64,000 bases of DNA from positions 4,572 to 68,571 of the forward strand of contig NZ_JACSRD010000202.1 in assembly GCF_014879935.1 (NCBI RefSeq). Reading direction: 5' to 3'. Positions 7,457-53,536 of this stretch are shown one piece after another. The DNA comes from Prosthecobacter sp. Its GTDB lineage: Bacteria > Verrucomicrobiota > Verrucomicrobiia > Verrucomicrobiales > Verrucomicrobiaceae. Below the pieces are notes generated by a model. It did not search any database. It had not been told where the DNA came from and worked only from the letters and a program-made list of their open reading frames with translations. Within the stretch, counting starts at the first letter, position 1. Every line of letters begins with the position of its first letter. Position numbers and translations under genes: made by a program.

Positions 7457-7480
7457 GGGGACAATCCCCCCAGGTGGGGG
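7457..7480 (-). promoter_or_regulatory. Conserved upstream motif, copy 2 (CCCACCTGGGGGGATTGTCCC)
   Basis: Core 7464-7476, 36 nt upstream of ATG 7427 and directly after the stop (7483-7485) of the preceding gene. Here it is followed by an inverted CAGGTG, which gives a possible hairpin. Confidence 0.5.
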
Positions 7481-7482
7481 AA

Positions 7483-10630: not shown

Positions 10631-10649
10631 TCGCCCGCAAGTGAGGGGG
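10631..10649 (-). promoter_or_regulatory. Conserved upstream motif, copy 3, diverged (CTCACTTGCGGGCGATGCAAA)
   Basis: Starts 1 nt after the stop (10650-10652) of the preceding gene and lies 41 nt upstream of ATG 10589. A CAGAAT hexamer sits 17 nt downstream of ATGCAA. Confidence 0.4.
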
Positions 10650-12996: not shown

Positions 12997-14874
12997 ATGT
13001 GGAGGCACTTTCGCAAAGCGTGCTTATGGTGTGCCTCTGTTCATCAAACCGTGCCCGAAAAACGCCTCCCAACTGCTGCTCCACCCTCCCACCAGCTCCC
13101 CTGGCTCTCGTGGCATCCCGGCCTCGTCGGCCTGGTGACGTTTCTGCTGGTGGTCGTGCCGTTGCTGATCGCGGTGTGGAACATGCATTCCCAGGCGGAC
13201 CGCATTCTGAAGGCGACGATCCAGGAGCAGCTCCTGAGTTCGGCGCGGGTGCTGGCCCAGTCGGTGGATCCTGATGTCCACGCCACCTTGAAGAAGGCGG
13301 AGCAGGAGAAGTCACCGCAGTATGAAGCGCTGGTGCGTCGCATGGAACAGGCCCGTTCGACGATCGACACCGTGCGCATGATCAAGTTCAGCTACACCTG
13401 CGTGCTCGACGGTGATGACGTGCGTTTCGTCGTCGATACCACTCCGGAGGGCGATGCCGACCACGATGGCACGGAGGACAAGGCGCACCTGATGGAGCTC
13501 TACGAGCACCCGAGCCCCACGCTGCGCCATGTTTTGCTCAACGGTGTGGCCATGGTGGACCAGAAACCCTACTCCGACCGCTGGGGCACCTTCATGAGCG
13601 CCTTCGCGCCGATCATTGATGCCCGACGCCAGGTGGTGGGCGCGACGGGCGTGGACGTCTCCCTGGAAGATTTTGAACTGCAACGCTCCGGTCTCCGCCA
13701 TGTGGCCACCTTGAGCGCCTTCGGCGTCATTTTCCTGGCCTACCTGGCCGGTCACGGCATGGCAGGCTATCACAGTCGCCTGAAAAGCTCGGTGCAGAGC
13801 CTCATGAAGGCGAATGAGGCGGCGATGACTGCGGAACGGGTGAAGAACGACTTCCTCGGTGCGATGAGCCATGAACTGCGCACGCCGCTGAACGCGGTGC
13901 TGGGCATGTCGGAGATGCTGGCGCAGACAAAGCTCGACGCCTCGCAGCAGGAGATGATCACCACGGTGCAGCGCTCCGGCGAGTCGCTGCTGGGCACGCT
14001 GACGAGCATCCTGGAGTTCACGCAGCTCGATGGCGGGCGCTCGCAGGTGAAAGCGGAGGAGACACACCTCGACACGCTGCTGCAGGAGGTGCAGAAGCCC
14101 CACGAGGCGGCCCTGCGGGAGAAGGGATTGACCGTGGTCCACCAGATTGAGGAGAACTGCCCGCCTTTCTTCACCGCGCAGACGGCCCTGATCCGCCAGG
14201 TGCTGTCCCACCTCGTTTCAAACGCGATCAAATTCACCGACACCGGTGGAATCGAGATCCGAGTGAAGGCCACGAGGCATGACACGGGCGGCGGCAGGCT
14301 GCACTTTGAAGTGCGGGACACGGGCATCGGCATCGCGGGGCATCATGTCACGCGTTTGTTCGAGCCGCTGTTCCAGGCCGATGGCGGCACCACGCGCCGT
14401 CACGGCGGCACTGGCATGGGACTGGCGCTGTGCAAGCGGCTGTGTGATGCGATGAAGGCCCACATCTGGGCGGAGTCGAAGCCAGGCCAGGGCAGTTCAT
14501 TCCACGTGGACGTTCCTGTGGAGGTCTTCCGCACCATCGTGGTGTCCGCCAGTCCGCTGGCCTTCGTCTGGACGCATGATTCGACGGCCCGCATGCTGGC
14601 CACCCGTGTGATCGAAAAAAATGGCAGCGTGGTGCACGCCGTGAACTCCCTGGGAGAGCTGAAAAACCACGCGCAGCTCACTGAGGCCGCGTTTCTCGTG
14701 ATCGACGCTCATGAGGCTTCGGCAGAGACGGTGGCGGAGCTTCGCGGACTCGCGAAGGCGGCGCGTCTGATCGTCATCCACGGCCAGACGGAGCCGAACA
14801 GCCATCCTGCGGCCGATGTGATCGTGCCCGCGCCGGTGAAGCCGGCGGATCTGCGCAAGGCGCTGGAGTTGTAG
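12997..14874 (+). CDS. Membrane sensor histidine kinase with a periplasmic Cache/PDC-like domain and a C-terminal receiver-like tail
   Basis: TM GLVGLVTFLLVVVPLLIAVW. Periplasmic region: ..FSYTCVLDGDDVRFVVDTTPEGD..YSDRWGTFMSAFAPI. HisKA: FLGAMSHELRTPLNAVLGMSEML. HATPase_c: LVSNAIKFT, VRDTGIGI, GGTGMGLALCKRL. The track start is TTG 12994; the first ATG, 12997, is used. Confidence 0.85.
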   Translation: MWRHFRKACLWCASVHQTVPEKRLPTAAPPSHQLPWLSWHPGLVGLVTFLLVVVPLLIAVWNMHSQADRILKATIQEQLLSSARVLAQSVDPDVHATLKKAEQEKSPQYEALVRRMEQARSTIDTVRMIKFSYTCVLDGDDVRFVVDTTPEGDADHDGTEDKAHLMELYEHPSPTLRHVLLNGVAMVDQKPYSDRWGTFMSAFAPIIDARRQVVGATGVDVSLEDFELQRSGLRHVATLSAFGVIFLAYLAGHGMAGYHSRLKSSVQSLMKANEAAMTAERVKNDFLGAMSHELRTPLNAVLGMSEMLAQTKLDASQQEMITTVQRSGESLLGTLTSILEFTQLDGGRSQVKAEETHLDTLLQEVQKPHEAALREKGLTVVHQIEENCPPFFTAQTALIRQVLSHLVSNAIKFTDTGGIEIRVKATRHDTGGGRLHFEVRDTGIGIAGHHVTRLFEPLFQADGGTTRRHGGTGMGLALCKRLCDAMKAHIWAESKPGQGSSFHVDVPVEVFRTIVVSASPLAFVWTHDSTARMLATRVIEKNGSVVHAVNSLGELKNHAQLTEAAFLVIDAHEASAETVAELRGLAKAARLIVIHGQTEPNSHPAADVIVPAPVKPADLRKALEL

Positions 14875-18997: not shown

Positions 18998-19020
18998 GGA
19001 ACAATCCCCCCAGGTGGGTG
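18998..19020 (-). promoter_or_regulatory. Conserved upstream motif, copy 5 (CCCACCTGGGGGGATTGTTCC)
   Basis: Core 19004-19016, 38 nt upstream of ATG 18965 and just downstream of the terminator at 19038-19075. Confidence 0.5.
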
Positions 19021-19037
19021 GTGAGCGCATCCCGATC

Positions 19038-19839: not shown

Positions 19840-21051
19840 TCAGGCCGCGAGGGCGAAGGTGGATGCGGTGGCGCTGGAGCGTGCGGCGATGGCGTCGAGC
19901 ATCAGGCGGTGGATGTGGGGAATGTGTGTGACGTCCTGCGGCACGTCCGGCGTGCTGCTGAAGAGCGTGGCGAAGCTCTGCGGATCATCGGGGTGATAGC
20001 CGTGCATGGCACGGATCGGCCGCTCACCCATGTGGGAGGGAACAATGAGGCAGCCTTCACGCACGAGGAAGATGAGCTCGCCAAAGCGGCCGTCCGCGAA
20101 ATGAGTGCGCAGTTGTTTCATCTCCGCTTCCGGCATGATGCGGCCTTGCGGCACCTTCTCGAGCGCTGCGATGATGCGACGGCGTGCGAGGTCGCTGTTG
20201 AACCAGAAACGGGCCATGGTGCTGTCATAGACGACGTTGTAGTCCCGGCCGATGCGCATCCCGAGCCCGTCGATGACACTCATGAGGTTGAGATGCTCGT
20301 CGCAATTGGCCATGCCGTGGTCGCTGAAGACATGCAGGGTCACGCTGCGGTAGTGCTGGTGCGCGGCTTGCAGCGTCTGTGTGATCCAGGCCTCATATTC
20401 GGCGAGCTTCGTGTCGATCTCCGGTGATTGGTTGCCGACGCGGTGCAGCAGCCCGTCGAGACCGGCCCAGTATTGAAACGCGAAGTCGATGCGCTCTGCG
20501 GTGATGTCCGCGTTCAAACGGTCGCGGTTGGCCTCCTCGGACTCGTCGGGGTTGGTGACGAAGTAGGGCACTTTCGCGGCTTCGAGCTGGTCGAAGATGT
20601 TTTCCCCGCGGTTCATGCCCCTGGGCTTCAGCGGGCTTTTTTTCTCCGTGAAGTCGTAGAGGTGGATGCGCTGGAAGGGGATGTTGTAGAGGTCGAAGTA
20701 GCCCTGGAAGCCCAGACGGCGTCTGGCGAGCTTGGTGAGCAGGCGGCGCACGATGCGGCGGCTGGTAAGCGCCTTGGGCAGGAAGCGCAACCAGCGGAGC
20801 GAGCTGAAGGGCGAGTTCTTCGGGTCGTGGATGAAGTAGCACCAGTTCTGATGCTCGTCGGGCCAGCGTCCGCTCAGGATGCTCGGAACGCAGGTGCTGC
20901 TGTAACCGAACACGCTGCCGAGTCTCCGGCGGTGAGGCGCTGCCTGTGCGAGGAAGTGCGGGCGGGTCTTGATGATCTCCCACCCGCAGGCGTCGATCAT
21001 GATGAAGAGGTCGAGGTGGTCTTTCATGCGGTGGGGGGACTGCTGGATCAC
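19840..21051 (-). CDS. Alkaline-phosphatase-superfamily enzyme (type I phosphodiesterase / nucleotide pyrophosphatase-like)
   Basis: Metal and nucleophile motifs: IMIDACGWE, GYSSTCVPSILSG, VFSDHGM, HGYHP. The track start is GTG 21051 (GTGA overlap with the upstream stop); ATG 21027 is an alternative. Confidence 0.7.
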   Translation of the reverse strand: MIQQSPHRMKDHLDLFIMIDACGWEIIKTRPHFLAQAAPHRRRLGSVFGYSSTCVPSILSGRWPDEHQNWCYFIHDPKNSPFSSLRWLRFLPKALTSRRIVRRLLTKLARRRLGFQGYFDLYNIPFQRIHLYDFTEKKSPLKPRGMNRGENIFDQLEAAKVPYFVTNPDESEEANRDRLNADITAERIDFAFQYWAGLDGLLHRVGNQSPEIDTKLAEYEAWITQTLQAAHQHYRSVTLHVFSDHGMANCDEHLNLMSVIDGLGMRIGRDYNVVYDSTMARFWFNSDLARRRIIAALEKVPQGRIMPEAEMKQLRTHFADGRFGELIFLVREGCLIVPSHMGERPIRAMHGYHPDDPQSFATLFSSTPDVPQDVTHIPHIHRLMLDAIAARSSATASTFALAA

Positions 21052-21434
21052 GCACTGAGGACCAGGCCGAGCAGGCGCTGGATGTCCTTGCGCAATTGCG
21101 AGGGGCTGAAGGGCTTGGTGATGAACAGGGAGGCATCTTCAAAGCCGTGATGCTGGCCGCGGGCGAGCTGGCCGCGGGCGCTGAAGATGACGACGGGTAT
21201 GTCCTGCGTGTCGGGGCTGGATTTGAGCTCACGGAGCGTCTCCTTCCCGTCCATGACAGGCATGATGTGGTCGAGCAGGATGATGCAGGGCCTCTCACGA
21301 CGGGCAATGTCGAGCGCCTCTCGCCCATCGGTGGCGGTGAGCACCCGAAGGCCGAGGGGCCGCATGCTGAGCTCCGCCACACGGCGGATGTGCGGCTCGT
21401 CATCGACGATGAGGATGGGGCTATCGGCTGGCAT
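21048..21434 (-). CDS. Stand-alone receiver (CheY-like) response regulator
   Basis: Start re-set to MPADSPILIVDDEPHIRRV (ATG 21434). IILLDHIMPVMDGKETLRELK..PVVIFSA..FITKPF. It overlaps the upstream gene by 14 nt. Confidence 0.85.
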   Translation of the reverse strand: MPADSPILIVDDEPHIRRVAELSMRPLGLRVLTATDGREALDIARRERPCIILLDHIMPVMDGKETLRELKSSPDTQDIPVVIFSARGQLARGQHHGFEDASLFITKPFSPSQLRKDIQRLLGLVLSA

Positions 21435-23184
21435 GACTGAGTGACTGCGGGCAGGGAACGGGAAGGGTGGCATGGGCGCGGGCGAGGATGATGAAGGTCG
21501 CATCGTCCCGCACACGGGCGGACTCATGATAGACGCGGTGCATCTGACGGAGGCTATCGCGGGCCGCCCAGGCATCCAGCCCCGCAACTGAGGTGCTTCT
21601 CAGCCAGTGATGCAGCATTTCCCGGGTGATCTGAACCTCGGAACTGGTGCTGTCACTGAGGCCGTCGGTGTGCATGAGGATGTGCGTGATGCCTTTGAGA
21701 TGGATCTCATGCTGCGGGAACACGTACTCCTCGCTGACGCCGAGCGGCGGGCCGTCGGAGCCGATCTCGGCCACTTCGACACCATCGGAGAGCAGCAGCG
21801 GGCCATGACCGGCGCCGCAGGTGCGCAGGGTGAGGCTGTCAGGGCTGAGGTAAGCAAGCTGCGCGGTGATGAACATGTCCGCACGGTCCAGTTCGGTGAA
21901 CAGGCTGCGGTTGAGCTGGTACATCAGCTTCGCCGGCTCGGCAGCGAGGCTCAGGTGGGCGTGGAGATTGCTGCGGAAGGCGGTGGCGAAGAGGGCGGCG
22001 GGCACGCCTTTGCCCATCACGTCCGCGATGACAAAAAGACGCCCGCCATCGGCAAGCGGGATGCCATCAAGGAAATCGCCACCGACCTCACCCACGGAGG
22101 TGAGATGCCCGGCGCTCTGCACCACAGCGCTTTGCGGCAGTTCCACCGGCAGCAGCGAGCGCTGGATGTCCGCGGCGATCTGCAGCTCCCGTTTGATGAG
22201 GCGGGAGTGATTCGCCTCATCGCGACGACGCAGGGTGTGCAGCAGGGTGCCGAGGAAGTCCCCCAGGCTGCGCACGACATTGATCTCGGCGGCCTTCGGC
22301 TCCCAGTGGGCCTTGTTCACGCCAAAGGTGATCACGCCGATCACCTCGCCACCGCTTTCCAGCGGGTGAGCGACGCCGCTGACGGTCTGATGAAGATGAG
22401 AGAGCGGATCGGCGCCGTCGAAGGCCGAACTGCCATCGAACCACTGATCCTGACGGGAGATGCAGGCACGCGATTCCACAAGATGGGTGCTGCTGACATC
22501 GAGAAAGGGCGTGACGAAGGATGTCGCCGGCGAGACGGCGATGCGCTCGAGCTGCGTGCCGTCCGGCGTCATCATCCGCAGGCTGAGAAAGTCCGCCGCG
22601 GCAAGCTGCCGCAGCTCTTCCAGCCAGTTGGCCGCCAGGGTGTCCGCAGGAATGTCACGCGCGGCATCCGCGCCGAGCCGGAAGATGTTTGCCAGCATTT
22701 CATAGCACGCGGAAAGTTCCGCGGTCATGACTTTGAGCGTCGCGGCGGCATCATCGTCCTTCCGTGGAGGCGTGCGGCGGTCGCGCTGGAGATGCAGCAC
22801 GTTTTCCTCGCGGCCGCGCAGGTAGCTGACGCGATCGGTGAGCGATTCGATGATGAATAGCCCGCGTCCGTGCTCGGATTCGTCATCTTCGGGCAGGCTG
22901 GCTTTCACCGGCCAGTCAAAGTCCGAGCTGTGGTCGGTCACCCGCACCTCGACGCCAGTGGTGGTCGTGGTGGCCTGGATGTTCAGCGGGCTTTCGCTTT
23001 CGCTGTGGACCACGGCGTTTCCTGCGGCCTCCGCCAGCACCAGTTCCCACTCGCGGCACTCCTCAGCGCCGAGGTTCTGGTGATCCAGCCAGGCGATGAC
23101 TTCGCGCACAGCCTCATGGGCTGATTGCAACGTGGCTTGGAAGTCGATGCGGACACCGGAGCAGGACTGGCGGACGAGATGCAT
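21421..23184 (-). CDS. Fused RsbW-like serine kinase (HATPase_c_2) - GAF-like - PP2C/SpoIIE phosphatase (SypE-like switch protein)
   Basis: N-terminus: LVLAEAAGNAVVHS..VRVTDHSSDFDW..EHGRGLFIIESL (anti-sigma-factor-kinase type). Middle: GAF-like, ..GVAHPLESGGEVIGVITFG... C-terminus: [46 protein letters not shown] (SpoIIE/PP2C). Confidence 0.8.
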   Translation of the reverse strand: MHLVRQSCSGVRIDFQATLQSAHEAVREVIAWLDHQNLGAEECREWELVLAEAAGNAVVHSESESPLNIQATTTTTGVEVRVTDHSSDFDWPVKASLPEDDESEHGRGLFIIESLTDRVSYLRGREENVLHLQRDRRTPPRKDDDAAATLKVMTAELSACYEMLANIFRLGADAARDIPADTLAANWLEELRQLAAADFLSLRMMTPDGTQLERIAVSPATSFVTPFLDVSSTHLVESRACISRQDQWFDGSSAFDGADPLSHLHQTVSGVAHPLESGGEVIGVITFGVNKAHWEPKAAEINVVRSLGDFLGTLLHTLRRRDEANHSRLIKRELQIAADIQRSLLPVELPQSAVVQSAGHLTSVGEVGGDFLDGIPLADGGRLFVIADVMGKGVPAALFATAFRSNLHAHLSLAAEPAKLMYQLNRSLFTELDRADMFITAQLAYLSPDSLTLRTCGAGHGPLLLSDGVEVAEIGSDGPPLGVSEEYVFPQHEIHLKGITHILMHTDGLSDSTSSEVQITREMLHHWLRSTSVAGLDAWAARDSLRQMHRVYHESARVRDDATFIILARAHATLPVPCPQSLSHASR

Positions 23185-23196
23185 GGGGGACGGGGA

Positions 23197-23481
23197 TCAG
23201 GCGTGGACGATTTCAAACACGCGATGCAGGCGTGTCAGCTCAATGAGCTGCGTGACGGCCGTGGAGGGATTCAGCAGCTTCAAGATGCCGCCCTGGGCGC
23301 GAAGCGTCTTGTGCAGGGAGAGCAAGGCGCCGAGGCCGGAGCTGTCGATGAAGCGCGTCTTGGACAGATCGACGGCCGTTTCCGTGGATTCGGGCGTGAT
23401 GTCGCGTGCGACGCGGTCTTTCCAGGCGCGGGCGGTGGAGGAGCAGAGTTCAGCGGGTGCGGTGATGACTGTTGGGTTCAT
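23197..23481 (-). CDS. STAS-domain anti-sigma-factor-antagonist-like protein (SpoIIAA/RsbV/SypA type)
   Basis: 94 aa. DLSKTRFIDSSGLGALLSLHKTL contains the conserved phosphorylatable-Ser motif DSSGLG. Confidence 0.85.
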   Translation of the reverse strand: MNPTVITAPAELCSSTARAWKDRVARDITPESTETAVDLSKTRFIDSSGLGALLSLHKTLRAQGGILKLLNPSTAVTQLIELTRLHRVFEIVHA

Positions 23482-23486
23482 GAGGA

Positions 23487-24791
23487 TCAGACTTGGCAGG
23501 TTTGGGGGATGTTTTTGTCGAGTTGGCCGGTGGCGGACTCGTGGGTGCCGTTCAGGGCCAGAAAGCGGGGCAGGCAGCGCAGGAGGATGCGCAGGTTCAT
23601 GCGGACGGAACGGTGCACGCTGTAACAGGCGGCGTGGGCAAGGGCGGCCTCCGGTCCTTCCAGGCCATCGTCCGTCGCATCGGCGAGCGAGAACACTCCC
23701 GCGGGCGAGGCTAGCCAGAGCTGCTCGAATTCATCTCCCAGCGCCGCGGCTTGGGGCGCGGTGAGCGGGCGGTTGCCGACGAGGTGCATGTCACCACGAA
23801 AGACGCGCCAAAGCTCCGGCCAGCGAGCGAAAAGACTGTCGATGCCGTTCAGCGCATGCAGAGGCGTGGTGCGCGTGTAGCGATCCTGACGGCCGGGTGG
23901 CGGCAGGATGATCTGGCGTCGCACCACGGTGGTCTCATGCCGCATGAGCCTCGTCCGCAGCATGGTGAAGGCGGCCAGGGGCAGCGTGAGCACCATCAGC
24001 AGCAAGGCGAAGAGCCGCGTCATCCACGCGGACGGCTTGCCGCCGTAGTGCTGGCGCTTCAGGCTGGCGAGGAGGAACTCATCCGTGATCTCGACAAACG
24101 AGGCGAGGCGCCAGTTTTCGAGGCCGTCTCCCCACGCGAAGGAGTGCGAGACCTCGGTCATGGCGCCGACATACGTGTTCGGGCCGATCCAACTGCCGCG
24201 CACAGTGGACTGATGGTCAATGAAGGCCGCGTTCTCGATGATGGAGCCGCCCATGATGTGGACGTTTTCTCCGATGATGACACGTGGGCCGATCCATGCG
24301 GGGCCTTCGATGACGGCCGTGGAAGCGATGCGCGCACGCGTGCTGACAAACACATCCGAGGCCAGACGGCGCATGGTGAGGCGTGATTCGGGCTCCACGT
24401 GCTTGAACTTGCGCCGCATCACGTCGTAAAGGCCTTCGGTGCTCTCCCAGAGCGGCAGCGTGGGGCCTTCCGGCAGTGTTTCGAGCGCGATGACCGACGT
24501 TTCGGCATCCGTGGCGAAGAGCGTGCGGGCGGCCTCGATGGTCGGCTCCCGGGGCACGGGAATGATCGTGATGCGCAGGCCCCAGCGACCGCCGTCACCC
24601 GTGGCGCGGCGGATTTCCTCAGGACGGTCCGCCACGAGCAGCGTGACCTCCTTGACGCCGTCGATGGCCAGTTTTTCAAGCCACAGGTCGAGCAGCTCAC
24701 GGCCCATGAAGGGCATGAGGGCCAGCGGTTTCATGCGGCGGGCGAAGCCGGCGCATTCGCGATGATCTGGAAGGATGACGACAGCTTTCAT
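23487..24791 (-). CDS. Fusion: nucleotidyltransferase-like + left-handed beta-helix domain + TM + degenerate bacterial sugar-transferase (PGT-like) domain
   Basis: N-terminus resembles sugar-1-P nucleotidyltransferases (MKAVVILPD..KPLALMPFMGRELLD..GVKEVTLLV) but has no clear GxGTRL loop. Hexapeptide-like turns: IEGPAWIGPRVIIGENVHIMGGSIIENAAFIDHQSTVRGSWIGPNTYVG. TM: LFALLLMVLTLPLAAFTML. PGT-like tail: WPELWRVFRGDMHLVGNRP..SPAGVFSLAD, lacking the KFRTM block and the Asp-Glu dyad. Confidence 0.7.
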   Translation of the reverse strand: MKAVVILPDHRECAGFARRMKPLALMPFMGRELLDLWLEKLAIDGVKEVTLLVADRPEEIRRATGDGGRWGLRITIIPVPREPTIEAARTLFATDAETSVIALETLPEGPTLPLWESTEGLYDVMRRKFKHVEPESRLTMRRLASDVFVSTRARIASTAVIEGPAWIGPRVIIGENVHIMGGSIIENAAFIDHQSTVRGSWIGPNTYVGAMTEVSHSFAWGDGLENWRLASFVEITDEFLLASLKRQHYGGKPSAWMTRLFALLLMVLTLPLAAFTMLRTRLMRHETTVVRRQIILPPPGRQDRYTRTTPLHALNGIDSLFARWPELWRVFRGDMHLVGNRPLTAPQAAALGDEFEQLWLASPAGVFSLADATDDGLEGPEAALAHAACYSVHRSVRMNLRILLRCLPRFLALNGTHESATGQLDKNIPQTCQV

Positions 24792-24794
24792 GGC

Positions 24795-25550
24795 TCACAT
24801 GCCTTTCCCCAGCACAATGGCGGGCACGGTTTTCAGAAGGATCCACAGGTCGCGGAGGAAGGACTGGCTCTCGATGTAGCGCACGTCGAGCCGCACCTGC
24901 TCGTCAAAGTCGATGGAGTTCCGGTCGCCGATCTCCCACAGGCCGCCTTCGCGTTCTCCCACCTGCCACAGGCAGGTGATGCCAGGCCGCGCATGCAGGC
25001 GGCGGCGGTCGCCGGGCGAATAGAGCGCCACCTCACGCGGCAGCGGCGGACGCGGGCCGACGATGGACATGTCACCGCGCAGCACGTTGATGAACTGCGG
25101 CAGCTCGTCGATGGACGTCTTGCGGATGAAGCGGCCGACGGGTGTCACACGTGGATCGTTCTTCATCTTGAAGGTCACACCCTGCGCCTTGTCGTTTTGG
25201 GCCAGGAGCTCGGCCAGCTTCGCCTCCGCATCCACACACATGGAGCGGAACTTCAGCATCTCGAAGTGGCGGCCGAGCATGCCCACGCGCTTCTGCTTGA
25301 AGAACACCGGGCCGCCATCACGGCGGATGAGCAGCGCCACGATGATGAACACTGGCGAGGCGAGCAGCAGGCACACGAGGCTGATGACGATGTCAAAGAG
25401 ACGCTTCACGGCGTGGGTGCCATTCACCACCGTGAGCCAGCTCCAGCGTTTCAAATGCATGCCCAGGCGCATGCGGAGACGGCCCATGCGGTTCTGCGCC
25501 TGCAGGAGACGTGCGGCTTGCTGTTCAGCGAGGTGCGATGTGTGAATCAT
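24795..25550 (-). CDS. Small phosphoglycosyl transferase (bacterial sugar transferase family, PglC/WecP-like initiating enzyme)
   Basis: RLFDIVISLVCLLLASPVFIIVALLIRRDGGPVFFKQKRVGMLGRHFEMLKFRSM..KTSIDELPQFINVLRGDMSIVGPRPP..RPGITCLWQV. All hallmark blocks are present. Confidence 0.9.
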   Translation of the reverse strand: MIHTSHLAEQQAARLLQAQNRMGRLRMRLGMHLKRWSWLTVVNGTHAVKRLFDIVISLVCLLLASPVFIIVALLIRRDGGPVFFKQKRVGMLGRHFEMLKFRSMCVDAEAKLAELLAQNDKAQGVTFKMKNDPRVTPVGRFIRKTSIDELPQFINVLRGDMSIVGPRPPLPREVALYSPGDRRRLHARPGITCLWQVGEREGGLWEIGDRNSIDFDEQVRLDVRYIESQSFLRDLWILLKTVPAIVLGKGM

Positions 25551-25584
25551 GAGTGGATCGTGAATGATGGGGCGGTGTTTGTAA

Positions 25585-25602
25585 CTCCCCGCAGGTGTGG
25601 GG
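25585..25602 (-). promoter_or_regulatory. Conserved upstream motif, copy 6 (CACACCTGCGGGGAGTTACAA)
   Basis: Core 25585-25597, 34 nt upstream of ATG 25550. A G7 tract (25605-25611) lies just distal to it. Confidence 0.5.
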
Positions 25603-25620
25603 AAGGGGGGGATGGTCCGT

Positions 25621-26868
25621 TCAGGCGGCGGCGAGCGCCGCGGGTGTCAGGACTTCCGAAACCGGGTGTGAAAGCCGTGGCGCGGCATGCTGCGCCACGT
25701 CGGTGAACATGGTTTCCAGATCGCGGATGTAGCCGTCGAAGTCGTAGCGCTCCGAAACGAGCTTCAGGCCGTTTTCACCCATCTCGCGGGCCTTGGCCTT
25801 GTTTTGCAGCAGCTCATCCAGACGCTGCGCAAACGCGCCGCGGTCCATCCACGGCACCAGATGGCCGTTGTGGCCGTCGATGAGCCAGTCTTTGATGCCA
25901 CCGGCGTCAAAAGCCACGACGGGCAAGGCATAGCGCATGACTTCGAGCCCGATGGTTGCGATAGGCTCCGGCCACACACTGCTCAATGCGACGACACTGC
26001 ATTCGCGGTAGTAGGCCTTCAGTTCCTCCTGCGGGATGAAGCCTTTGAAATGTACGCGGTCGCTCAGGCCCAGATCGCGGCTCAACTGCTCGCAGTGGGC
26101 CTTGTGATTGCCATCGCCGAGGATGATGCATTCAAAGTTGCTTTTCACCTTCGCCAGCGACTCCAGCAGCACGTCCACACCTTTGCCACGGATGATCTGG
26201 CCGGCGTAGAGGATCAGATTGCGGTCGCTGAAGCTGCTGCGGAGCGTGGGATCACCCATGCGCGGCACGGGTGCGTGGATCTCAATGCGGTTCGCGTCAA
26301 AGCCGTTCCGCAGCAGTTCATCACGCATGTAGGTGGTGACGACGACCATGCGGTCAAAGCGGCGGTTTAGCGCGATCTCGCGCTTCTTCTGGCGATAGCT
26401 CAACCATTTCAGCGGGAGGCTGCCGCCGCTGTTGTTTTTCACCACGCATGCGCCGCAGCCGAAGACGCAATAGAGCGAGGCGGCACGCGTGCAGATCTCA
26501 CGGGAGAAGTAGTGATACTTGTAGCTCCGCATGCAGTAGATGTCGTGGTCATGCACCATGCGCACGAGCGGCACATTGCTGTCCACCAGCGCCTGGATGA
26601 CATCGAGGTCGGCCATTTTGTGCACATAGACGACGTCCGGCCGGAAACGCAGCACGGCGTCCTTTGTCTGTGCCGCCGCCGTGCTGCCGGAGAGAGGAAA
26701 CGTGTGGGTGAAGACCTGCCTCCAGCCGTTCTCGTTCTTTCCGGTGCCAGGACCGTGAAGGATGGCGATGTCGTGGCCGCGTTTCGCGAGTTGTTCGGCG
26801 GTGATGAAGGCGTTGGCCTCGGCCCCGGCCAGGGCGCCGAAGCGTTCGTGAACGTAAAGGATCTTCAT
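25621..26868 (-). CDS. Glycosyltransferase family 4 with a Cys-rich insert
   Basis: Start re-set to MKILYVHERFGALAGAEANAFITAEQLAKRGH (ATG 26868). YAGQIIRGKGVDVLLESL..LSSVWPEPIATIGLEVMRYALPVVAFDAGGIKDWL. Confidence 0.85.
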   Translation of the reverse strand: MKILYVHERFGALAGAEANAFITAEQLAKRGHDIAILHGPGTGKNENGWRQVFTHTFPLSGSTAAAQTKDAVLRFRPDVVYVHKMADLDVIQALVDSNVPLVRMVHDHDIYCMRSYKYHYFSREICTRAASLYCVFGCGACVVKNNSGGSLPLKWLSYRQKKREIALNRRFDRMVVVTTYMRDELLRNGFDANRIEIHAPVPRMGDPTLRSSFSDRNLILYAGQIIRGKGVDVLLESLAKVKSNFECIILGDGNHKAHCEQLSRDLGLSDRVHFKGFIPQEELKAYYRECSVVALSSVWPEPIATIGLEVMRYALPVVAFDAGGIKDWLIDGHNGHLVPWMDRGAFAQRLDELLQNKAKAREMGENGLKLVSERYDFDGYIRDLETMFTDVAQHAAPRLSHPVSEVLTPAALAAA

Positions 26869-26905
26869 GAGGCCGCGAACATGCGGCCGTGCGCAGGCGC
26901 TTGAA

Positions 26906-26923
26906 ATCCCCGCAGGTGGGTGG
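26906..26923 (-). promoter_or_regulatory. Conserved upstream motif, copy 7 (CCCACCTGCGGGGATTTCAAG)
   Basis: Core 26906-26918, 37 nt upstream of ATG 26868 and 15 nt after the stop codon (26934-26936) of the preceding kinase. Confidence 0.5.
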
Positions 26924-26933
26924 TGGTTCGCCG

Positions 26934-29897
26934 CTACTTCGACCAGGCGGTGAGCGCGGGCGCGGCGATCTTGAAGGCCTGCTTGATCTGCTCCACCAGC
27001 GCCGGCTGGTTTGTGCGCGCGCCTTGCTCGGCGAGTTGTTCCAGCTCGCGGCACAGCGCGTGCAGTTGATTGAGTCCGAAGAGGCTGCTGCTGCCCTTCA
27101 AGGCATGCGCCACGCGGCGGAGCGAGTTCTGATCGTCAGTCGCGGCGAGTTTTTCGAGCTCCTGGATGCGTTCCGGCGTGTCTTTGAGCCAGTTCTGGAC
27201 GAGCTCGGCCGTGTCTTCGCGGCTCAGCTCCTCGATGAGTTGTGAAATGGCCTCCTGCACGGCGGATTGGTCGTCCGGCGCTGAATCCGGCCCTGGTTCG
27301 ACGATTCTCGTGTTCTCCAGCACACGGACATGACTCAGTGCTTCGGTCAGAGCCTTCGCACGCAGCGGTTTTGAAACGTAGTCGTCCATTCCGGCCGCGA
27401 GACAGCGTTCACGCTCGCCCGCCATGACGTTCGCGGTCATGGCGATGATCCGGCACCGCGGGCGCTTCCACAGCGCGGTGGATTCGATCTCGCGGATGGT
27501 GCGCGTGGCCTCGTAGCCGTCCACGCGTGGCATGTGGCAGTCCATCAACACGGCGTCATAGACACCGCTGGCAAAGCGGTCCACCGCCTCCTCTCCATCG
27601 CGGGCGACTTCGGCGGGATAGCCGTGTTTTTCGAGCATCATCATGGCCATGCGGGCGTTCACCTCGTTGTCCTCGACCACGAGGAGTCGCGGCCGGCTGC
27701 CTGTGCCATGGGCAGGCACCGTGGCGGCGGTGTCCGCGGCCTGCGGCTCCGGCTCGGCATCGGGCATGCCTTGCGCGATCTTGAGCGGCAGATGGAACCA
27801 GAAGCGTGAGCCGGCGAAACGTTCGCTCTCCACGCCGATGCAGCCGCCCATGAGCTCCACAAGGCGTTTGCAGATGGCCAGGCCGAGTCCGGTGCCGCCG
27901 AAACGACGGGACGACGAGCTGTCCACCTGGGTGAAGGGCTGGAACAACTGGGCCTGCTGCTCCTCCGACATGCCGATGCCGGTGTCTGCGACACTGATCT
28001 CGAGCGTCACCGGCCCCTCGGCCGGCGAGGTGAGACGTTTGACGTCGATGCGGATGTTGCCCTCGTCGGTGAACTTGATGCCGTTGCCGACGAGGTTCAT
28101 GAGGATCTGCCGCAAACGGCCTGGATCGCCCACCAGCGTCGGCGGCACGTCAGACGCGATGTGCGTGATGAGTTCGATGTCGCGCGCGGCCGCCTTGTGG
28201 CGCAGCAGATCCACCACGCCGCGCACCACATCGTCCATGCGGAAGGGTTCCTCGACGATCTCGAGCTTGCGGGCCTCGATCTTGGAGAAATCGAGGATGT
28301 CGTCGATGATCGTCATCAGCGACTCGCCGCTCTGTCTCACGGCATCCACCATCTCCCGCTGCTTGGGCGCGAGGTCGGTGTCGAGAAGCAGGGAGGACAT
28401 GCCGATGATGCCGTTCATGGGAGTGCGGATCTCATGGCTCATGGTGGCCAGGAAGTCGCTCTTGGCGCGTGAGGCCGTCTCCGCGGCTTCCTTGGCCTGC
28501 AAAAGCTGATGTTCCGCCGCGCGGCGGACGATGTACTGGCCGATCTGGTTGCCGATGCCGGACAGCGACTCCAGCAGCGAGTCATCGGGGTCCAGGAAGT
28601 CCCGGCTGAAAAACTCGACCGACGCGATCGTGTCTCCGCCGGCCATGACCGGAAACGACAGCGCTCCATGCAGGCCGCAGGCAGCCACCACATCGGCGCG
28701 GGCGAAGGGCTCCGGCTGGGTGGCAAAGTCGCGATACCAATGGGCGCGGCCCGTCTTCCACACGAGGCCCGGCAGGTCCTCGCCGGATTCGAAGACCACT
28801 TCCCGGCTGCGGGTCGCGAACGCCTCCAAATCGACTGCCGGATCGTGCCACAGCTCGGCCAGGCGCATGTTTGTGAAGGTCGGGTCCACCATCCACATTG
28901 CTCCGGCGGTCCAGCCGAGCTTGGTGCAGATCATCTGGATCACCTTGGCCGCCGCCTGCCGCATCGTGTCCGCCTCCGCCAGGATGCGGCTGGCGGAGAA
29001 CTGCATGGCACGACGTTGTTCGTCGAGGCGGCGTTGCGTGATGTCGCTTTCGATCGCCATGAAGTTCACCACCTCGCCCTTGTCATCATGCATGGGCTGC
29101 ACTTCCACGGAGACCCAGTAGCGTTTTCCGGAGCGATGGTAGTTCAGGACCTCGGTGCGGAAGCTCTTCTTCTCCGCGATGCACCGGGCCATGTGGGCGA
29201 TGGTGGTGGGATCGGTTTCCGGTCCCTGGAGCAAGTCTCCCGGCTTTCGGCCTTCAGCCTCCGCTTGGGACCAGCCGGTGATGCGGGTGAAGCCTTCATT
29301 CACCCACTCGATGCGTCCTTGGGCGTCGGTCACGACCACTCCGTTGTCGGTGCGTGCGGCCACCAGCGCCAGTTTGCGCAGGCTTGCCTCCTGGGCTCGT
29401 AGCTGCGCCCGTTGTTCGGTGAGACGTTTGTTGAGCTTCTGCAGATCATCCGTGGCCATCCGCTGGGTCTGCAGCACCTGCAGCAGATCGATGGTCTGGT
29501 CGTGCACGGCGAAGTCGCTCATCGTCAGGCCGAAATCGTCCACCTGGTCCGGGTCGCTGAGCCACGGACTGCCGAGCAGCACGCCGTGAGGTGGGTCGTC
29601 GAGAATGATGGCCTGGCCGCGCAGCACCCGTTTCGAGTGCTGATCTTCCAGAAGGAACAGCCGGTCGGTATGACCCGCGGCCATGGCGTGGGTGAAAACA
29701 CCTTCCGGCTTTCTCGAGACGAACAGATCCGGAAGGCGTGCCCCAACCACAGCGTGCGGGCAGAATTTCAGCAATGACGGCCCGGTTTCGAGGATCACGT
29801 CGTTGTCATCCCACACGAAGTAGAAGGGAAACGCACGGAGGAACTCCCGTGTCGGGAGGCTGCTGATCACACTGGAGGTGTCCGGGCGGAGCTTCAT
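26934..29897 (-). CDS. Hybrid sensor histidine kinase: HNOBA - PAS - GAF - HisKA - HATPase_c - REC - HPt
   Basis: The N-terminus is collinear with the heme-NO-binding-associated region of soluble guanylate cyclases: [73 protein letters not shown] plus a coiled coil. PAS: [26 protein letters not shown] follows. HisKA: [19 protein letters not shown]. HATPase: [35 protein letters not shown]: [26 protein letters not shown]. HPt: [13 protein letters not shown]. Confidence 0.85.
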
Positions 29898-30451
29898 GCG
29901 GCGGCGGAGGTCCAGCGAACCTCGAAGACATCGTGATCAGCGCCTGCGGCCTTGGATTCGACCAGCGTCGCCGTGGCGGGCGTCTTGTAGAGCTTTCCAA
30001 GGCCCTGCACGAGGCCCACCACGAAGTCCGTCAGCCCGGAACGATGGGTAAGGTAGTGCAGGCGCAGCGAGTTGTCACCGATGTCCGAGCACTCGAAGCT
30101 CGGCGGGCGGAGGTTCGGGTAGATCATGGTCACCCGTGTGTGGAAGTTGGGCAGGTTGAGGAGGAACTCCTTCAGTGACTGCCCGCCGGAGCGCATCATC
30201 GCCCCGTAGCTCTTCGCGGCTGTCTCCAGCACCCAGTGCTCGCCGAAGGCGATGAGGATGTCGCGTGCCGGGGCGCCGAGGATGTCGGAGGCCGCGCTGA
30301 CCAGGTCGTAGGTGATGTCGTCGGGATAGGCCTCGTTGCTCACAAACACCTCCACATCCACGCCGGCTTTCGCCTTGATGGCTTCCCATTTGCGTTCTCC
30401 GAACTGGGTGACGACGAGATCTTCGATGGCTTTGTTGACGAGTCCGTACAT
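29894..30451 (-). CDS. hnoX: H-NOX (heme nitric oxide/oxygen binding) sensor protein
   Basis: Canonical N-terminus [13 protein letters not shown]. Proximal-His context [25 protein letters not shown]. Heme-propionate motif as Y-x-T-x-R ([18 protein letters not shown]). ATG 30451 is used; the track start is GTG 30466. ATGA-type 4-nt overlap with the downstream kinase. Confidence 0.9.
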
Positions 30452-30507
30452 GGCGATTGAGGACACTCATAAACGAAGGAGATCCCGCGTGCACGGCCTT
30501 CCAGCCG

Positions 30508-30527
30508 ATTCCCCGCATTTGAGGGGG
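30508..30527 (-). promoter_or_regulatory. Conserved upstream motif, copy 8, diverged (CCTCAAATGCGGGGAATCGGC)
   Basis: 56 nt upstream of ATG 30451, immediately after the T-run of the terminator at 30528-30567. Confidence 0.4.
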
Positions 30528-30567
30528 AAAAAGAAAGCCCGCATGGCGTCGGACACCATGCGGGCTT
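30528..30567 (-). terminator. Rho-independent terminator ending the 19-gene operon
   Basis: Minus strand reads AAGCCCGCATGG-tgtccgacg-CCATGCGGGCTT followed by TCTTTTT. 12-bp perfect stem (30535-30546 with 30556-30567). Confidence 0.75.
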
Positions 30568-30589
30568 CGTGAGTGGAGGAAAGGCGGCT

Positions 30590-31792
30590 CTATCGCGTGC
30601 CGAGCAAGGCGTGCCTCAGCCAGTCGGGATCGCAGTAGTCGGAAAATGATTCGTCCTCAGGCGAGGCGAAGGAGAAGCGCTCCCACTCCGACTCCACGAA
30701 GGTGCGGAAGTTCTGCCGGAAGGCGCTGGTGCTGTAGGCCTCCGCATTGCGGCGGCACTCACGGGCGTCCCAGGTGCGGGTCTCGAAGTCATCCACCGCG
30801 CAGATCAGCGAGGGGACGGTCTGCTCGTCAAAATACACGCCCGTCTTGTTCTCCACGACCGTTTCCAGGGCCCCGCCTTTGCCGAAGGCGATGACGGGCG
30901 TGCCGCTGGCCTGGGCCTCCAGCAAAATGATGCCAAAGTCCTCCTCGCCCGCGAAAACGAAGGCCTTGGCCCTCTCCATGTGGTCCTTCATGACGTCGTT
31001 CGGCTGCCAGCCCATGACCTGAACGTTCGGACCGGCCATCTTGCGCAGCTTCTGAAGATCCGGGCCATCACCGATGACGACGAGCTTCTTGTCCGGCATC
31101 GCGTTGAACGCGTCGATGACGAGATCGATCCGTTTGTAGGGCACGAGGCGTGACGCGGTGAAGTAGAAGTCGTCCTTCTGCTCCCGCATCTGGAAGCGAT
31201 CCACATTCACCGGAGGATACACGACCGTGGCCTGGCGGCGGTACACCTTCTCGATGCGGCGGGCGATGAAGCGTGAGTTGGCCATGAAGGCATCCACACC
31301 GGCCGCCGTCCGGTGGTCCCACACGCGGATGCTGTGCAGCAGCCAGCGCACCAGCCAGGACTTCAGGCCGAAGTCGAGCCTCGACTCCTGAAGATACTGG
31401 CTTTGCAGGTCCCATGCGTAACGGATGGGAGAGTGGCAGTAGCAGAGATGGAGCTGACGCGGGCCGGTGATGATGCCCTTGGCGAAGGCGTAGCTGCTGG
31501 AGATGACGAGATCATAGCTGCGGAAGTCGAACTGCTCGATGGCCAGCGGCATGATCGGGAAACAGTGGCGGTAGAAGCGTTTTCCGCCCGGAAGCCGCTG
31601 CACGAAGGAGGTTTTCACCTCACGGCCTTTGAGGAAGGCGCGGTTCTTCTCATCGAGGGCGTCGATGAGCGTGAAGACATCGGCATCGGGATAAACCTCC
31701 AGCATTTGCTCGAGCACACGTTCAGCACCGCCATAAACGGGCAGCCAGTCGTGGACGATCGCCATGCGGCGTGGATGGAAAGGAGAATTCAT
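30590..31792 (-). CDS. Glycosyltransferase family 4
   Basis: MAIVHDWLPVYGGAERVLEQM..; FAGEEDFGIILLEAQASGTPVIAFGKGGALETV. Confidence 0.85.
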   Translation of the reverse strand: MNSPFHPRRMAIVHDWLPVYGGAERVLEQMLEVYPDADVFTLIDALDEKNRAFLKGREVKTSFVQRLPGGKRFYRHCFPIMPLAIEQFDFRSYDLVISSSYAFAKGIITGPRQLHLCYCHSPIRYAWDLQSQYLQESRLDFGLKSWLVRWLLHSIRVWDHRTAAGVDAFMANSRFIARRIEKVYRRQATVVYPPVNVDRFQMREQKDDFYFTASRLVPYKRIDLVIDAFNAMPDKKLVVIGDGPDLQKLRKMAGPNVQVMGWQPNDVMKDHMERAKAFVFAGEEDFGIILLEAQASGTPVIAFGKGGALETVVENKTGVYFDEQTVPSLICAVDDFETRTWDARECRRNAEAYSTSAFRQNFRTFVESEWERFSFASPEDESFSDYCDPDWLRHALLGTR

Positions 31793-33396
31793 GGGGAAAC
31801 TTCGACAGGTTGGAGAGTTGAAGGCGCGTGGGTTTCCGTTGGCGAGGCACAGGAAAGGATGACGTGTTCGATCTTCGCACGCACGGCCTCCAGGCCGTAG
31901 GTGTCGCAGGCGGTCTGCCGGGCTTTGGCGGCGAGGCGCGAGGCAAGAGCGGGATGATCACTCAGACGGCGCAAAGCGGCGGCAAGCTCCGCCGCGGATC
32001 CGGGCGTGACGAGCAGACCCGTCTCCTCATGCGTGATGATCTCCGCCGCGCCACCCGCACGTGTGGCGATCACCGGTTTGCCGGCCAGCATGCCTTCGAC
32101 GATGACGCGACCAAACGGTTCGGCGATCACGGAGGCGTGCACGATCACATCAGCGAGGTCAAAGAACGCCTGCGTGTCCTTGCGGAAGCCGGTGAGGTGA
32201 ACGCGGCCGGTGAGTGCAGGTTGAGCCGCTGTTTCGCGCAGTTGGGCGGCGTATTCGCGATCTTCAGCCGTGAACAAGGCGTCGCCGAGGAGGATCGCAT
32301 GCGCATCAGGCACGTCACGCAAGGCTTCGAGCAGGACGTGCTGGCCTTTCCACGGCGTGAGACGTCCTGCCATCAAAACGATCCATGCATCCGCCGGCAG
32401 GCCGAGGTTTGCGCGCAAAGCGGCCTGTTCGGCATCGGTGGAGCGGTTTTCCGTGAGTTTGAAGCCGTTGGGGACGACGACCACGTTTTCAACGTGCCCT
32501 CCCGCATCGTGGACCGCCGCTTTGGTGGCTTCGGAGTTCGCGATGACCGCATGTGCGAACTGATTCGCGCAAAAGACGAGCGCGAGGCGGTTCATGGCGC
32601 TGAAATGACCGGCGGAGATGATGTCATGCAGATGGAAGACGAGCTTCCGTCCGGCGAGAAAGGCCGCGGGGCCGCCGATGATCAGCGCCTTGGCCGTGTT
32701 GGCGTAAACCACATCGAACCGACGGGCGAGGAGGGCGGTTTGCAGCACGCTTTGCACCAGTTCCGGCACCACTTGTAGCACGCGCAGCCATCCAGCCTGC
32801 TTGTCCACGGCTGCGGTGCTTCCAGAGAGCGGCAGCACCTGCACCTTCACTCCATCCTGCTCCAGGGCCTCGCGGAATTCGCCATCCTGATAGAGCAGCA
32901 CCTCGCTGTCTGCCGCACGGGCGATGGCAAGATCGAGCAGCATCAGTTCAGCGCCGCCGAGACGGCCGGTTTGATCGACAAACAGCACCTGCGGCGAACC
33001 GGCGCTCTCGTTGCGACCGCAACGAAGCTGCACCCACAATCCGCCCACGCAGCCGATCACCGCGCCGAAGAATCCGGCCACCACATCCGCCAGATCCATC
33101 GCACGGCCGGGAATGTGCGTCTGGGCGATCTCGACGAGGACATTTCCAACCGTGATCGAGCCGATGATCCAGGCCAACGCACGCCAGAGACGCCTTTCCG
33201 GGCTGAACGCCAGCCAGGCGGCGGCGGCCAGAAGGGCAAAGGCGATCAGATTGAACCAGAAGTCCATGCGGTCGAGATACTGGGACCATTCCACCGGCAG
33301 GAAGGTGATGCGCCGCTTCTGAATCGTCGGCTTCAACGCCAGCCACAGCCCTGAGGAGAGCAGGACGGCCAGAATGATGCGTGCGCGGCATTTCAT
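31789..33396 (-). CDS. VanZ-like membrane domain fused to a family 4 glycosyltransferase
   Basis: N-terminal TM bundle: FWFNLIAFALLAAAAWLAF..GNVLVEIAQTHIPGRAMDLADVVAGFFGAVIG (VanZ-like). GT4: MAGRLTPWKGQHVLLEAL..ASVIAEPFGRVIVEGMLAGKPVIATRAGGAAEII. Confidence 0.8.
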   Translation of the reverse strand: MKCRARIILAVLLSSGLWLALKPTIQKRRITFLPVEWSQYLDRMDFWFNLIAFALLAAAAWLAFSPERRLWRALAWIIGSITVGNVLVEIAQTHIPGRAMDLADVVAGFFGAVIGCVGGLWVQLRCGRNESAGSPQVLFVDQTGRLGGAELMLLDLAIARAADSEVLLYQDGEFREALEQDGVKVQVLPLSGSTAAVDKQAGWLRVLQVVPELVQSVLQTALLARRFDVVYANTAKALIIGGPAAFLAGRKLVFHLHDIISAGHFSAMNRLALVFCANQFAHAVIANSEATKAAVHDAGGHVENVVVVPNGFKLTENRSTDAEQAALRANLGLPADAWIVLMAGRLTPWKGQHVLLEALRDVPDAHAILLGDALFTAEDREYAAQLRETAAQPALTGRVHLTGFRKDTQAFFDLADVIVHASVIAEPFGRVIVEGMLAGKPVIATRAGGAAEIITHEETGLLVTPGSAAELAAALRRLSDHPALASRLAAKARQTACDTYGLEAVRAKIEHVILSCASPTETHAPSTLQPVEVSP

Positions 33397-47938: not shown

Positions 47939-47954
47939 GAGTGTTTGGGGGAAT

Positions 47955-53419: not shown

Positions 53420-53536
53420 AGTGGATGAATGCGATGCGATGTCTTCCTCTTGTCTGAGATCACACTAAGGCATCGCTGACTGGATTCTAAGGCCGCGGTT
53501 TCTAGAAATTATGGACGGCGGAGGGAGCTTGCCATC

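Follow-up and report, generated by a model that had tools for sequence, protein, structure and literature searches.

The 64,000-nucleotide stretch of Prosthecobacter sp. contig NZ_JACSRD010000202.1 analyzed here (the window) contains a polysaccharide locus of approximately 50 kb on its minus strand, from about position 51713 down to 980. Inside this locus lie adjacent genes for an H-NOX protein and for a hybrid sensor kinase with an HNOBA domain (Table 1). The first-pass annotation of the sequence had likened this pair, embedded in a polysaccharide locus, to a soluble guanylate cyclase (sGC) sensor divided between two polypeptides, the output of which is a phosphorelay. Both open reading frames (ORFs) were found on the minus strand as annotated, and the ATG of the kinase gene overlaps the stop codon of the H-NOX gene by 4 nt (ATGA), through which the two genes are translationally coupled. 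Pfam analyses of the surrounding genes identified many GT4 and GT2 glycosyltransferases, Wzy, flippases, acetyltransferases, UDP-sugar enzymes and Wza/Wzc-like export proteins, so that the polysaccharide assignment stands.

The mechanical ORF of the H-NOX protein begins 15 nt earlier at a GTG, while homologs and PDB alignments start at MYG. The Pfam HNOB profile (PF07700) covers residues 2 to 160 of the 185-residue protein with a score of 164.7 bits (E = 2e-48; cut-off, 25.5). In a search of PDB sequences, the best match was Alr2278 of Nostoc (E = 7e-59), followed by the beta1 subunit of sGC (E ~1e-30); Shewanella-type structures (E ~1e-6) and the O2-binding H-NOX of a Thermoanaerobacter methyl-accepting chemotaxis protein (MCP; E ~2e-4) were distant. 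The MYG start, the proximal His (H104) and the heme propionate motif (Y133-x-T135-x-R137) that had been recognized at first pass are all present, as is P116. H104, P116, Y133 and R137 are invariant in 55 H-NOX homologs, and position 135 is Thr in 34 of them and Ser in 21, showing that YxTxR is the normal state of this clade. F143 aligns with M144 in the distal pocket of the Nostoc protein, which we take to be the position of the distal Tyr140 of O2-binding H-NOX proteins. All 55 homologs have Phe there, and thus no distal Tyr. The sequence grouping and F143 both agree with a putative NO-selective sensor of the sGC/Nostoc type.

In the 987-residue kinase, the Pfam HNOBA profile (PF07701) was detected in two stretches (60.7 bits; cut-off, 23.4), followed by PAS (residues 185 to 288), GAF (311 to 456), HisKA (478 to 542), HATPase_c (590 to 706), Response_reg (739 to 854) and Hpt (898 to 974) domains. 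All domain calls of the first-pass annotation, HNOB and HNOBA included, thus passed the profile check. The residues needed for a phosphorelay, H488 in the H-box, D786 in the receiver and H931 in the Hpt domain, are all present. A phmmer search of the PDB with the first 170 residues returned 2P04/2P08 first (E = 1.7e-10) and then the sGC alpha and beta subunits. Residues 13 to 165 are collinear with residues 205 to 373 of sGC beta1, an alignment that spans the PAS domain and reaches into the first part of the coiled coil (CC), as the first-pass comparison had proposed. The AlphaFold2 model of residues 1 to 173 (mean predicted local distance difference test score, 79.5) shows a PAS-like sheet followed by a helix of 39 residues. 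When this model was compared with the PDB using Foldseek, ranks 1 to 23 were all sGC PAS-CC structures or the Nostoc punctiforme kinase domain (2P04/2P08), the top matches having a target-normalized TM-score of 0.82 and a root mean square deviation of ~2 Å. The first generic PAS domain appeared with an E value of 4e-3, about five orders of magnitude worse. As Pfam, the PDB sequence search and the fold search agree, the HNOBA assignment is secure, and the domain, sequence and fold evidence supports the description of the pair as an sGC sensor split in two with a phosphorelay output.

In its C-terminal half, the kinase gave its best NCBIfam matches with the TorS, BarA and ArcB models, all under the equivalog cut-offs, and the kinase is therefore not an ortholog of any of these proteins. 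An NCBI protein with 100% identity to it comes from a metagenome-assembled genome (MAG) of a Prosthecobacter sp. Proteins with the same HNOBA-PAS-GAF-histidine kinase-REC-Hpt architecture form more than 100 clusters in Verrucomicrobiaceae and relatives, in size classes of ~990 and ~1115 to 1265 residues. The Hpt domain is the predicted phosphodonor for downstream receivers.

The genes that follow the kinase code for a cassette of priming transferases and a putative partner switch (Table 1). The EPS_sugtrans score of the priming transferase falls just short of the curated cut-off of 295.55 bits. The 434-residue protein encoded next covers only positions 91 to 176 of the Bac_transf profile, and the position of its gene immediately ahead of STAS is conserved across the cassette. 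The STAS gene, too short for the 100-residue ORF list, was picked up as a shorter ORF; its product scored 56.8 bits with TIGR00377, against a cut-off of 53.45. The RsbW-GAF-PP2C protein matched Rv1364c and the Pseudomonas aeruginosa RssB phosphatase in the PDB. SypE of Vibrio fischeri is a single RsbW-REC-PP2C protein, whereas the Prosthecobacter protein has a GAF domain in place of the central REC, which is here the product of a separate downstream gene. We know of no description of this "split SypE"-like STAS/RsbW-GAF-PP2C/REC arrangement as a unit.

Conservation of the neighborhood was determined by scanning an HNOBA alignment against one genome per species, which yielded 70 loci. An H-NOX gene lies directly upstream of the HNOBA kinase gene in 58 of them. 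HNOBA loci were also found in Methylocystis, Desulfobacteraceae, Polyangia and Opitutae, with simpler HNOBA-histidine kinase architectures. Downstream synteny was counted over the 48 independent genome loci whose sequence extends 9 kb or more past the kinase: 27 have Bac_transf, and 25 have STAS, RsbW/PP2C and REC genes. The conserved order after the kinase is GT4, priming Bac_transf, STAS, RsbW-GAF-PP2C, stand-alone REC and phosphodiesterase, with the first cassette gene usually located between -3 (stop/start overlap) and ~470 nt from the kinase stop codon; the GT4 start overlaps this codon in many relatives. The synteny spans Prosthecobacter, Akkermansiaceae, Luteolibacter and Haloferula, down to ~40% HNOBA identity. 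In Verrucomicrobiales, this conserved coupling of an H-NOX/HNOBA kinase pair to a cassette for polysaccharide priming and partner switching appears to be undescribed so far. Several lake-metagenome MAGs titled "Akkermansia muciniphila" (L004, L013 and L044) carry Prosthecobacter- or Akkermansiaceae-like H-NOX/kinase loci, and their species labels look unreliable.

The partner-switch genes also occur with other sensors. A metagenome scan with the RsbW-GAF-PP2C protein returned at least 486 relatives, the best 80 loci of which (L074 to L153) were examined. Among these, the gene directly after RsbW-GAF-PP2C codes for REC in 63 of 65 loci, and the one directly before it codes for STAS in 48 of 59. 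In 22 of 39 loci, a gene for a hybrid kinase is located upstream at a distance of no more than 10 kb; an HNOBA domain is detectable in just 6 of the 39. These counts indicate that STAS, RsbW-GAF-PP2C and REC form a widespread three-gene module taking different sensor kinases. In Verrucomicrobiales, its predicted input is the H-NOX/HNOBA kinase, and the stand-alone REC is the predicted target of the kinase Hpt domain.

A second candidate output is the NarL/LuxR-family regulator encoded in the same locus, which may represent the transcriptional arm of the kinase. This regulator is 77% identical to one encoded beside a paralogous pair of H-NOX and 1131-residue kinase in Prosthecobacter fluviatilis. 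Besides the window, 13 distinct loci have an ortholog next to an H-NOX/HNOBA kinase (14 rows, L003 and L017 being the same contig). One lies 0.1 to 3.5 kb downstream of all seven distinct listed loci for ~1131-residue H-NOX-associated kinases (L003/L017, L011, L015, L016, L018, L019 and L026), and copies also occur near six Akkermansiaceae H-NOX/kinase pairs. Identities are 74 to 80% beside the other Prosthecobacter 1131-residue pairs (e.g., L003:16302-16973) and 53 to 57% near the Akkermansiaceae pairs. The proposal made at first pass that the REC and the LuxR-type protein could serve as outputs is thus backed by conserved synteny, in 25 of 48 loci for the former and 13 distinct loci for the latter.

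Table 1. Features of the Prosthecobacter sp. window, with coordinates and supporting evidence
Feature	Position	Strand	Evidence or remarks
H-NOX (HNOB) heme sensor, 185 residues from MYG	29894-30451	minus	Pfam, PDB search, homolog alignment
Hybrid sensor kinase, 987 residues, HNOBA-PAS-GAF-HisKA-HATPase-REC-Hpt	26934-29897	minus	Pfam; phosphorelay residues H488, D786, H931
HNOBA (H-NOXA) PAS-like domain and start of signaling helix, kinase residues ~15-170	29388-29855	minus	Pfam, PDB phmmer, AlphaFold2, Foldseek
C-terminal Hpt domain of kinase, with H931	26976-27206	minus	Pfam Hpt, 64.2 bits; His within HALKGS motif
GT4 glycosyltransferase, first gene after kinase	25621-26868	minus	Pfam; syntenic in relatives, start often overlaps kinase stop
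Priming polyprenyl-phosphate sugar transferase (Bac_transf)	24795-25550	minus	Pfam, 228 bits; NCBIfam EPS_sugtrans, 284.6 bits
434-residue protein, nucleotidyltransferase/left-handed beta-helix N terminus and C-terminal half Bac_transf	23487-24791	minus	Pfam, NCBIfam
STAS anti-sigma-antagonist-like protein, 94 residues, S47 in IDSSGLG	23197-23481	minus	TIGR00377; PDB SpoIIAA, RsbV
RsbW-like Ser kinase-GAF-PP2C (SpoIIE) phosphatase, 587 residues	21421-23184	minus	Pfam HATPase_c_2, 72.7 bits; SpoIIE, 117.6 bits; GAF
Stand-alone receiver (REC), D54	21048-21434	minus	Pfam; 14-nt overlap with PP2C gene
Type I phosphodiesterase/AlkP-like protein, last conserved cassette gene	19840-21051	minus	Pfam; synteny
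NarL/LuxR-family response regulator (REC-GerE)	3625-4326	minus	Pfam; synteny
Intrinsic terminator of upstream glycosyltransferase operon	30534-30568	minus	16-pair stem, then T-run; 43 nt past stop codon
Palindrome CCCCGCATTTGAGGGG, 59 nt upstream of H-NOX ATG	30511-30526		0 mismatches to CCCCNCANNTGNGGGG
Palindrome in 65-nt kinase-GT4 spacer	26908-26923		Motif search
Palindrome copies in seven intergenic spacers	3405-3420, 7466-7481, 10633-10648, 19006-19021, 25587-25602, 26908-26923, 30511-30526		
HisKA-REC protein flanking locus	54955-56196	minus	No HATPase domain detected
Multi-PAS/GAF hybrid kinase with REC, flanking locus	56696-60850	plus	No Hpt domain
Multi-PAS/GAF hybrid kinase with REC, flanking locus	60857-63997	minus	No Hpt domain
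Second Wzy-like gene and second full-length Bac_transf gene (468 residues), just past locus	51962-54943	plus	
ORFs without Pfam match	10650-11714, 13312-14211, 42513-43397, 47096-48052	minus	
ORF without Pfam match	35-955	plus	

The locus carries a recurrent motif, a 16-bp palindrome (CCCCNCANNTGNGGGG) with 12 matches against 5.2 expected, a number that none of 100 shuffles reached. Seven intergenic spacers contain copies, mostly 28 to 59 nt ahead of the next start codon, and they are conserved at orthologous spacers in related genomes. The H-NOX-upstream copy matches the palindrome perfectly, confirming the claim that the pair has a motif copy of its own, and is kept in relatives as CCCCTCAATTGAGGGG at the same position. 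The copy in the kinase-GT4 spacer is part of an 18-mer found identically at the orthologous position in four related loci (L001, L004, L006 and L010). Defining the motif as an 18-mer (CCCACCTGSGGGGATTGT) was rejected: the H-NOX copy then had 6 mismatches and was not conserved in L001, and the relatives showed that the unit is the 16-bp palindrome. A sigma-54 promoter reading was also dropped, since there is neither a GG-N10-GC register nor a sigma-54 activator; no Sigma54_activat domain was detected in any scanned ORF of the window, and no sigma factor domain among the window proteins scanned with Pfam. Its dyad symmetry would fit recognition by a DNA-binding protein that acts as a dimer, a role for which the LuxR-type regulator could be a candidate.

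The first-pass annotation had placed the H-NOX/kinase pair between two operons. Its upstream boundary is as described, the upstream glycosyltransferase operon ending in an intrinsic terminator. Downstream, the 65-nt spacer between kinase and GT4 holds one motif copy and no terminator, and the kinase stop codon overlaps the GT4 start in many relatives. The pair is therefore better regarded as the head of the priming/partner-switch unit. A scan of positions 20500 to 32000 with the sigma-70 consensus, which tells little for Verrucomicrobia, gave no promoter-like site. The closest relative (L001), whose kinase is 80% identical, has a gene for a peptidase M10 inserted on the opposite strand between the glycosyltransferase operon and the H-NOX gene (L001:8584-9228). 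Past the kinase stop codon, it carries a long inverted repeat (L001:12960-13070), GCGTTTTGGAGTGC...GCACTCCAAAACGC. Neither is present in the window.

Beyond the locus, the right end of the window encodes a HisKA-REC protein and two multi-PAS/GAF hybrid kinases devoid of Hpt domains. The Hpt domain of the H-NOX-coupled kinase could act as a shared relay for these flanking sensor proteins, like SypF in V. fischeri. Second Wzy-like and Bac_transf genes lie on the opposite strand just past the locus. Five ORFs of approximately 300 to 350 residues, four in the locus and one at its left edge, have no Pfam match at E ≤ 0.001.

The cassette-linked H-NOX gene is not intact everywhere. In one Prosthecobacter clade, the HNOBA kinase gene of approximately 12 cassette-linked loci is preceded by an ORF of only 70 to 97 codons (L002/L030, L021 to L025, L027 to L029, L031 and L073; e.g., L002:9675-10004). 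These ORFs retain the first ~11 residues (MYRLLNKAxED...) and the last ~50 residues (...ESKxxWAGxDAFEVRWTSLAA) of H-NOX and lack residues ~12 to 132, hence the heme pocket and the heme-ligating His. The possibility that they code for a new partner protein was ruled out by their alignment to both H-NOX ends, which identifies them as deletion relics. The HNOBA domain of the kinases nevertheless remains conserved in this clade, and at least six of the relic genomes (e.g., P. fluviatilis; L017 and L073) harbor elsewhere a second, intact pair of H-NOX and ~1131-residue kinase.

The genes of the locus, their conserved order, and the domains, catalytic residues and fold of the products lead us to infer that the pair is an NO input module plugged into a polysaccharide-priming cassette, the Hpt domain feeding both the REC/partner switch and the LuxR-type regulator. 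We assign this reading a probability of roughly 0.55. H-NOX would bind heme through H104 and, having F143 in place of a distal hydrogen-bonding Tyr, would sense NO and not O2. It would dock on the HNOBA domain and signaling helix of the co-translated kinase, as in sGC, such that NO alters autophosphorylation. If the analogy with characterized H-NOX/kinase pairs applies, H-NOX in its NO-bound form would inhibit the kinase, although the sign of regulation is not something that sequence can give. Phosphate would then pass from H488 to D786 and to H931 of the Hpt domain. Transfer to D54 of the stand-alone REC would bias the fused Ser kinase/phosphatase that acts on S47 of the STAS protein, and the latter may gate the adjacent priming glycosyltransferases posttranslationally. 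This transferase pair is the most economical choice of STAS target, after the STAS-glycosyltransferase control reported in Anabaena. In parallel, the Hpt domain would phosphorylate the NarL/LuxR regulator, which may act on the spacer palindromes of the locus.

Several observations weigh against this reading. The PAS and GAF domains imply that the kinase can take further inputs, and the heme-less relics show that a cis-encoded H-NOX is not essential for the link between kinase and cassette. The cassette is not NO-specific either, because the STAS/PP2C/REC triad is also found with HNOBA-less kinases and without Bac_transf. Gene order cannot give phosphotransfer specificity, and the window has other kinases and receivers (54955-56196, 56696-60850 and 60857-63997). 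Finally, our literature search found no paper on H-NOX signaling in Verrucomicrobia and no biochemical data on a Verrucomicrobial H-NOX protein.

The alternative that best withstands the evidence is that the kinase signals to the NarL/LuxR regulator alone, exerting transcriptional control, and that the triad is an independent module in the operon with its REC served by another kinase. Indeed, in each of the seven distinct paralogous H-NOX/kinase loci that are devoid of the cassette, the closest regulator is the LuxR ortholog, the triad is widespread without HNOBA kinases, and other hybrid kinases are encoded in the window. Against such a separation speak the overlap of the kinase stop codon with the first cassette gene in many species and the observation that, in unrelated metagenome lineages, Hpt-bearing hybrid kinases are encoded directly upstream of the triad. 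Furthermore, 23 kb separate the LuxR gene from the kinase in the window. We consider this alternative unlikely.

It is more improbable still that the kinase is driven mainly through its PAS and GAF domains, with H-NOX dispensable or decaying and its co-location of little present function. The relics that precede otherwise intact, cassette-linked kinases in approximately 12 loci would fit such a scenario, but the window and its closest relatives have a full-length, translationally coupled H-NOX with all key residues. The HNOBA domain is conserved even in the relic clade, and H-NOX could act in trans there, since at least six of its genomes hold a second intact pair. Least probable is a sensor of O2, CO or redox state, or a constitutive heme-dependent kinase cofactor, for although some bacterial H-NOX proteins bind O2 (e.g., the Thermoanaerobacter MCP H-NOX), oxidation-sensing roles have been proposed for some and ligand specificity is not certain from sequence, the protein groups with Nostoc (7e-59) and sGC beta1 (1e-30) rather than with the O2-binding type (~2e-4) and has Phe at the Nostoc M144 position, as do all 55 homologs.

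If NO does enter the cassette through this kinase, the conserved arrangement suggests NO control of slime production in Verrucomicrobia, a phylum that has received little study. No earlier description of an H-NOX pathway would then exist for the Planctomycetes-Verrucomicrobia-Chlamydiae (PVC) superphylum, and the circuit would tie NO, an intermediate of denitrification and a signal of hosts or algae, to the production of matrix by bacteria that are abundant in freshwater and soil. As the sensor, kinase, Hpt domain, receivers, switch and target enzymes share one locus, it also offers a compact system for STAS partner-switch control of polysaccharide synthesis, the mode of which is still debated for Vibrio syp and for cyanobacteria. 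In addition, HNOBA kinases represent a tractable bacterial model for the passage of the H-NOX signal through the PAS/coiled-coil region of sGC. A bolder extension, which is less likely than not, joins all these elements: Verrucomicrobiales would possess a self-contained, vertically conserved NO-to-polysaccharide circuit in which the Hpt domain of the sGC-like split kinase is the hub, feeding a "split SypE" partner switch that directly gates the priming glycosyltransferase and a NarL/LuxR regulator acting on the CCCCNCANNTGNGGGG palindromes, and into which the two neighboring Hpt-less hybrid kinases could feed. If so, the heme-less H-NOX relics of sister species would be a natural experiment in input rewiring.

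As a whole, the first-pass observation is genuine and far exceeds what chance would give, and its interpretation is partly supported; the novelty that it implied for the association of H-NOX with an HNOBA kinase is the part that did not hold. This architecture is already known, and an H-NOX gene directly precedes most HNOBA kinase genes in our survey. Iyer, Anantharaman and Aravind (2003) reportedly defined HNOB and HNOBA and noted bacterial HNOBA signaling proteins beside H-NOX genes. As in Prosthecobacter, Nostoc combines a stand-alone sGC-like H-NOX (Alr2278) with a kinase that has an N-terminal HNOBA/H-NOXA PAS domain (2P04/2P08), and these are the best sequence and fold matches, the likeness to the N. 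punctiforme kinase being one between H-NOXA domains only. The downstream pathway of that kinase is, to our knowledge, uncharacterized. The H-NOXA domain of this signal transduction histidine kinase was crystallized as a stand-in for that of sGC (PMC2828450). Animal sGC (H-NOX-PAS-CC-cyclase) itself has the same H-NOX, HNOBA PAS domain and coiled coil in the same order. In Prosthecobacter, by contrast, the sensor is split over two polypeptides and a His-Asp-His phosphorelay replaces the cyclase.

The proposed partner switch has counterparts in two other systems. The P. aeruginosa relay runs from NosP through NahK, HptB and HsbR to HsbA (bioRxiv 10.1101/2025.09.24.678285). It likewise comprises a heme NO sensor and a co-cistronic hybrid kinase, with an Hpt protein acting on a REC-controlled PP2C/Ser kinase switch that targets a STAS protein. 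However, NosP is not an H-NOX, the Hpt is a separate protein, and the switch genes are located outside a polysaccharide locus and govern motility versus biofilm, with FlgM, HsbD and cyclic di-GMP as outputs. In Anabaena, a REC-SpoIIE phosphatase, HenR, whose cognate histidine kinase is unknown, and the STAS domain of the STAS-glycosyltransferase All4160 directly control an exopolysaccharide glycosyltransferase (bioRxiv 10.64898/2026.04.08.717354). There, in the synthesis of heterocyst polysaccharide, the phosphorylation state of STAS depends on a Ser kinase and on a SpoIIE phosphatase under receiver control, as we propose for Prosthecobacter. In the latter, the STAS protein is separate (94 residues) and encoded beside priming transferases, one protein combines the Ser kinase with the phosphatase, the REC has a gene of its own, and, unlike in Anabaena, the histidine kinase that is the candidate for the upstream role is encoded in cis.

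The closest functional parallel is the syp system of V. fischeri, in which NO and HnoX control HahK, which acts through the Hpt domain of SypF on SypG and on SypE/SypA (PMC12369376, PMC8738867). In both organisms, an NO/H-NOX-controlled kinase would feed an Hpt domain that serves a transcriptional regulator and a STAS/RsbW-like/PP2C switch in a polysaccharide locus. The components nevertheless differ. The hnoX-hahK genes lie outside syp and use the Hpt domain of the separate SypF protein, whereas the Prosthecobacter kinase has its own Hpt domain and is encoded inside the locus. Its H-NOX partner is of the sGC/Nostoc subtype, distant from the Shewanella type. The regulator is of the NarL/LuxR type, with no SypG-type sigma-54 activator among the scanned ORFs, and the recurrent motif is a palindrome and not the -24/-12 element of the sigma-54 promoters found in syp. 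The Prosthecobacter locus would thus be syp-like in function, but it is not a member of the syp type.

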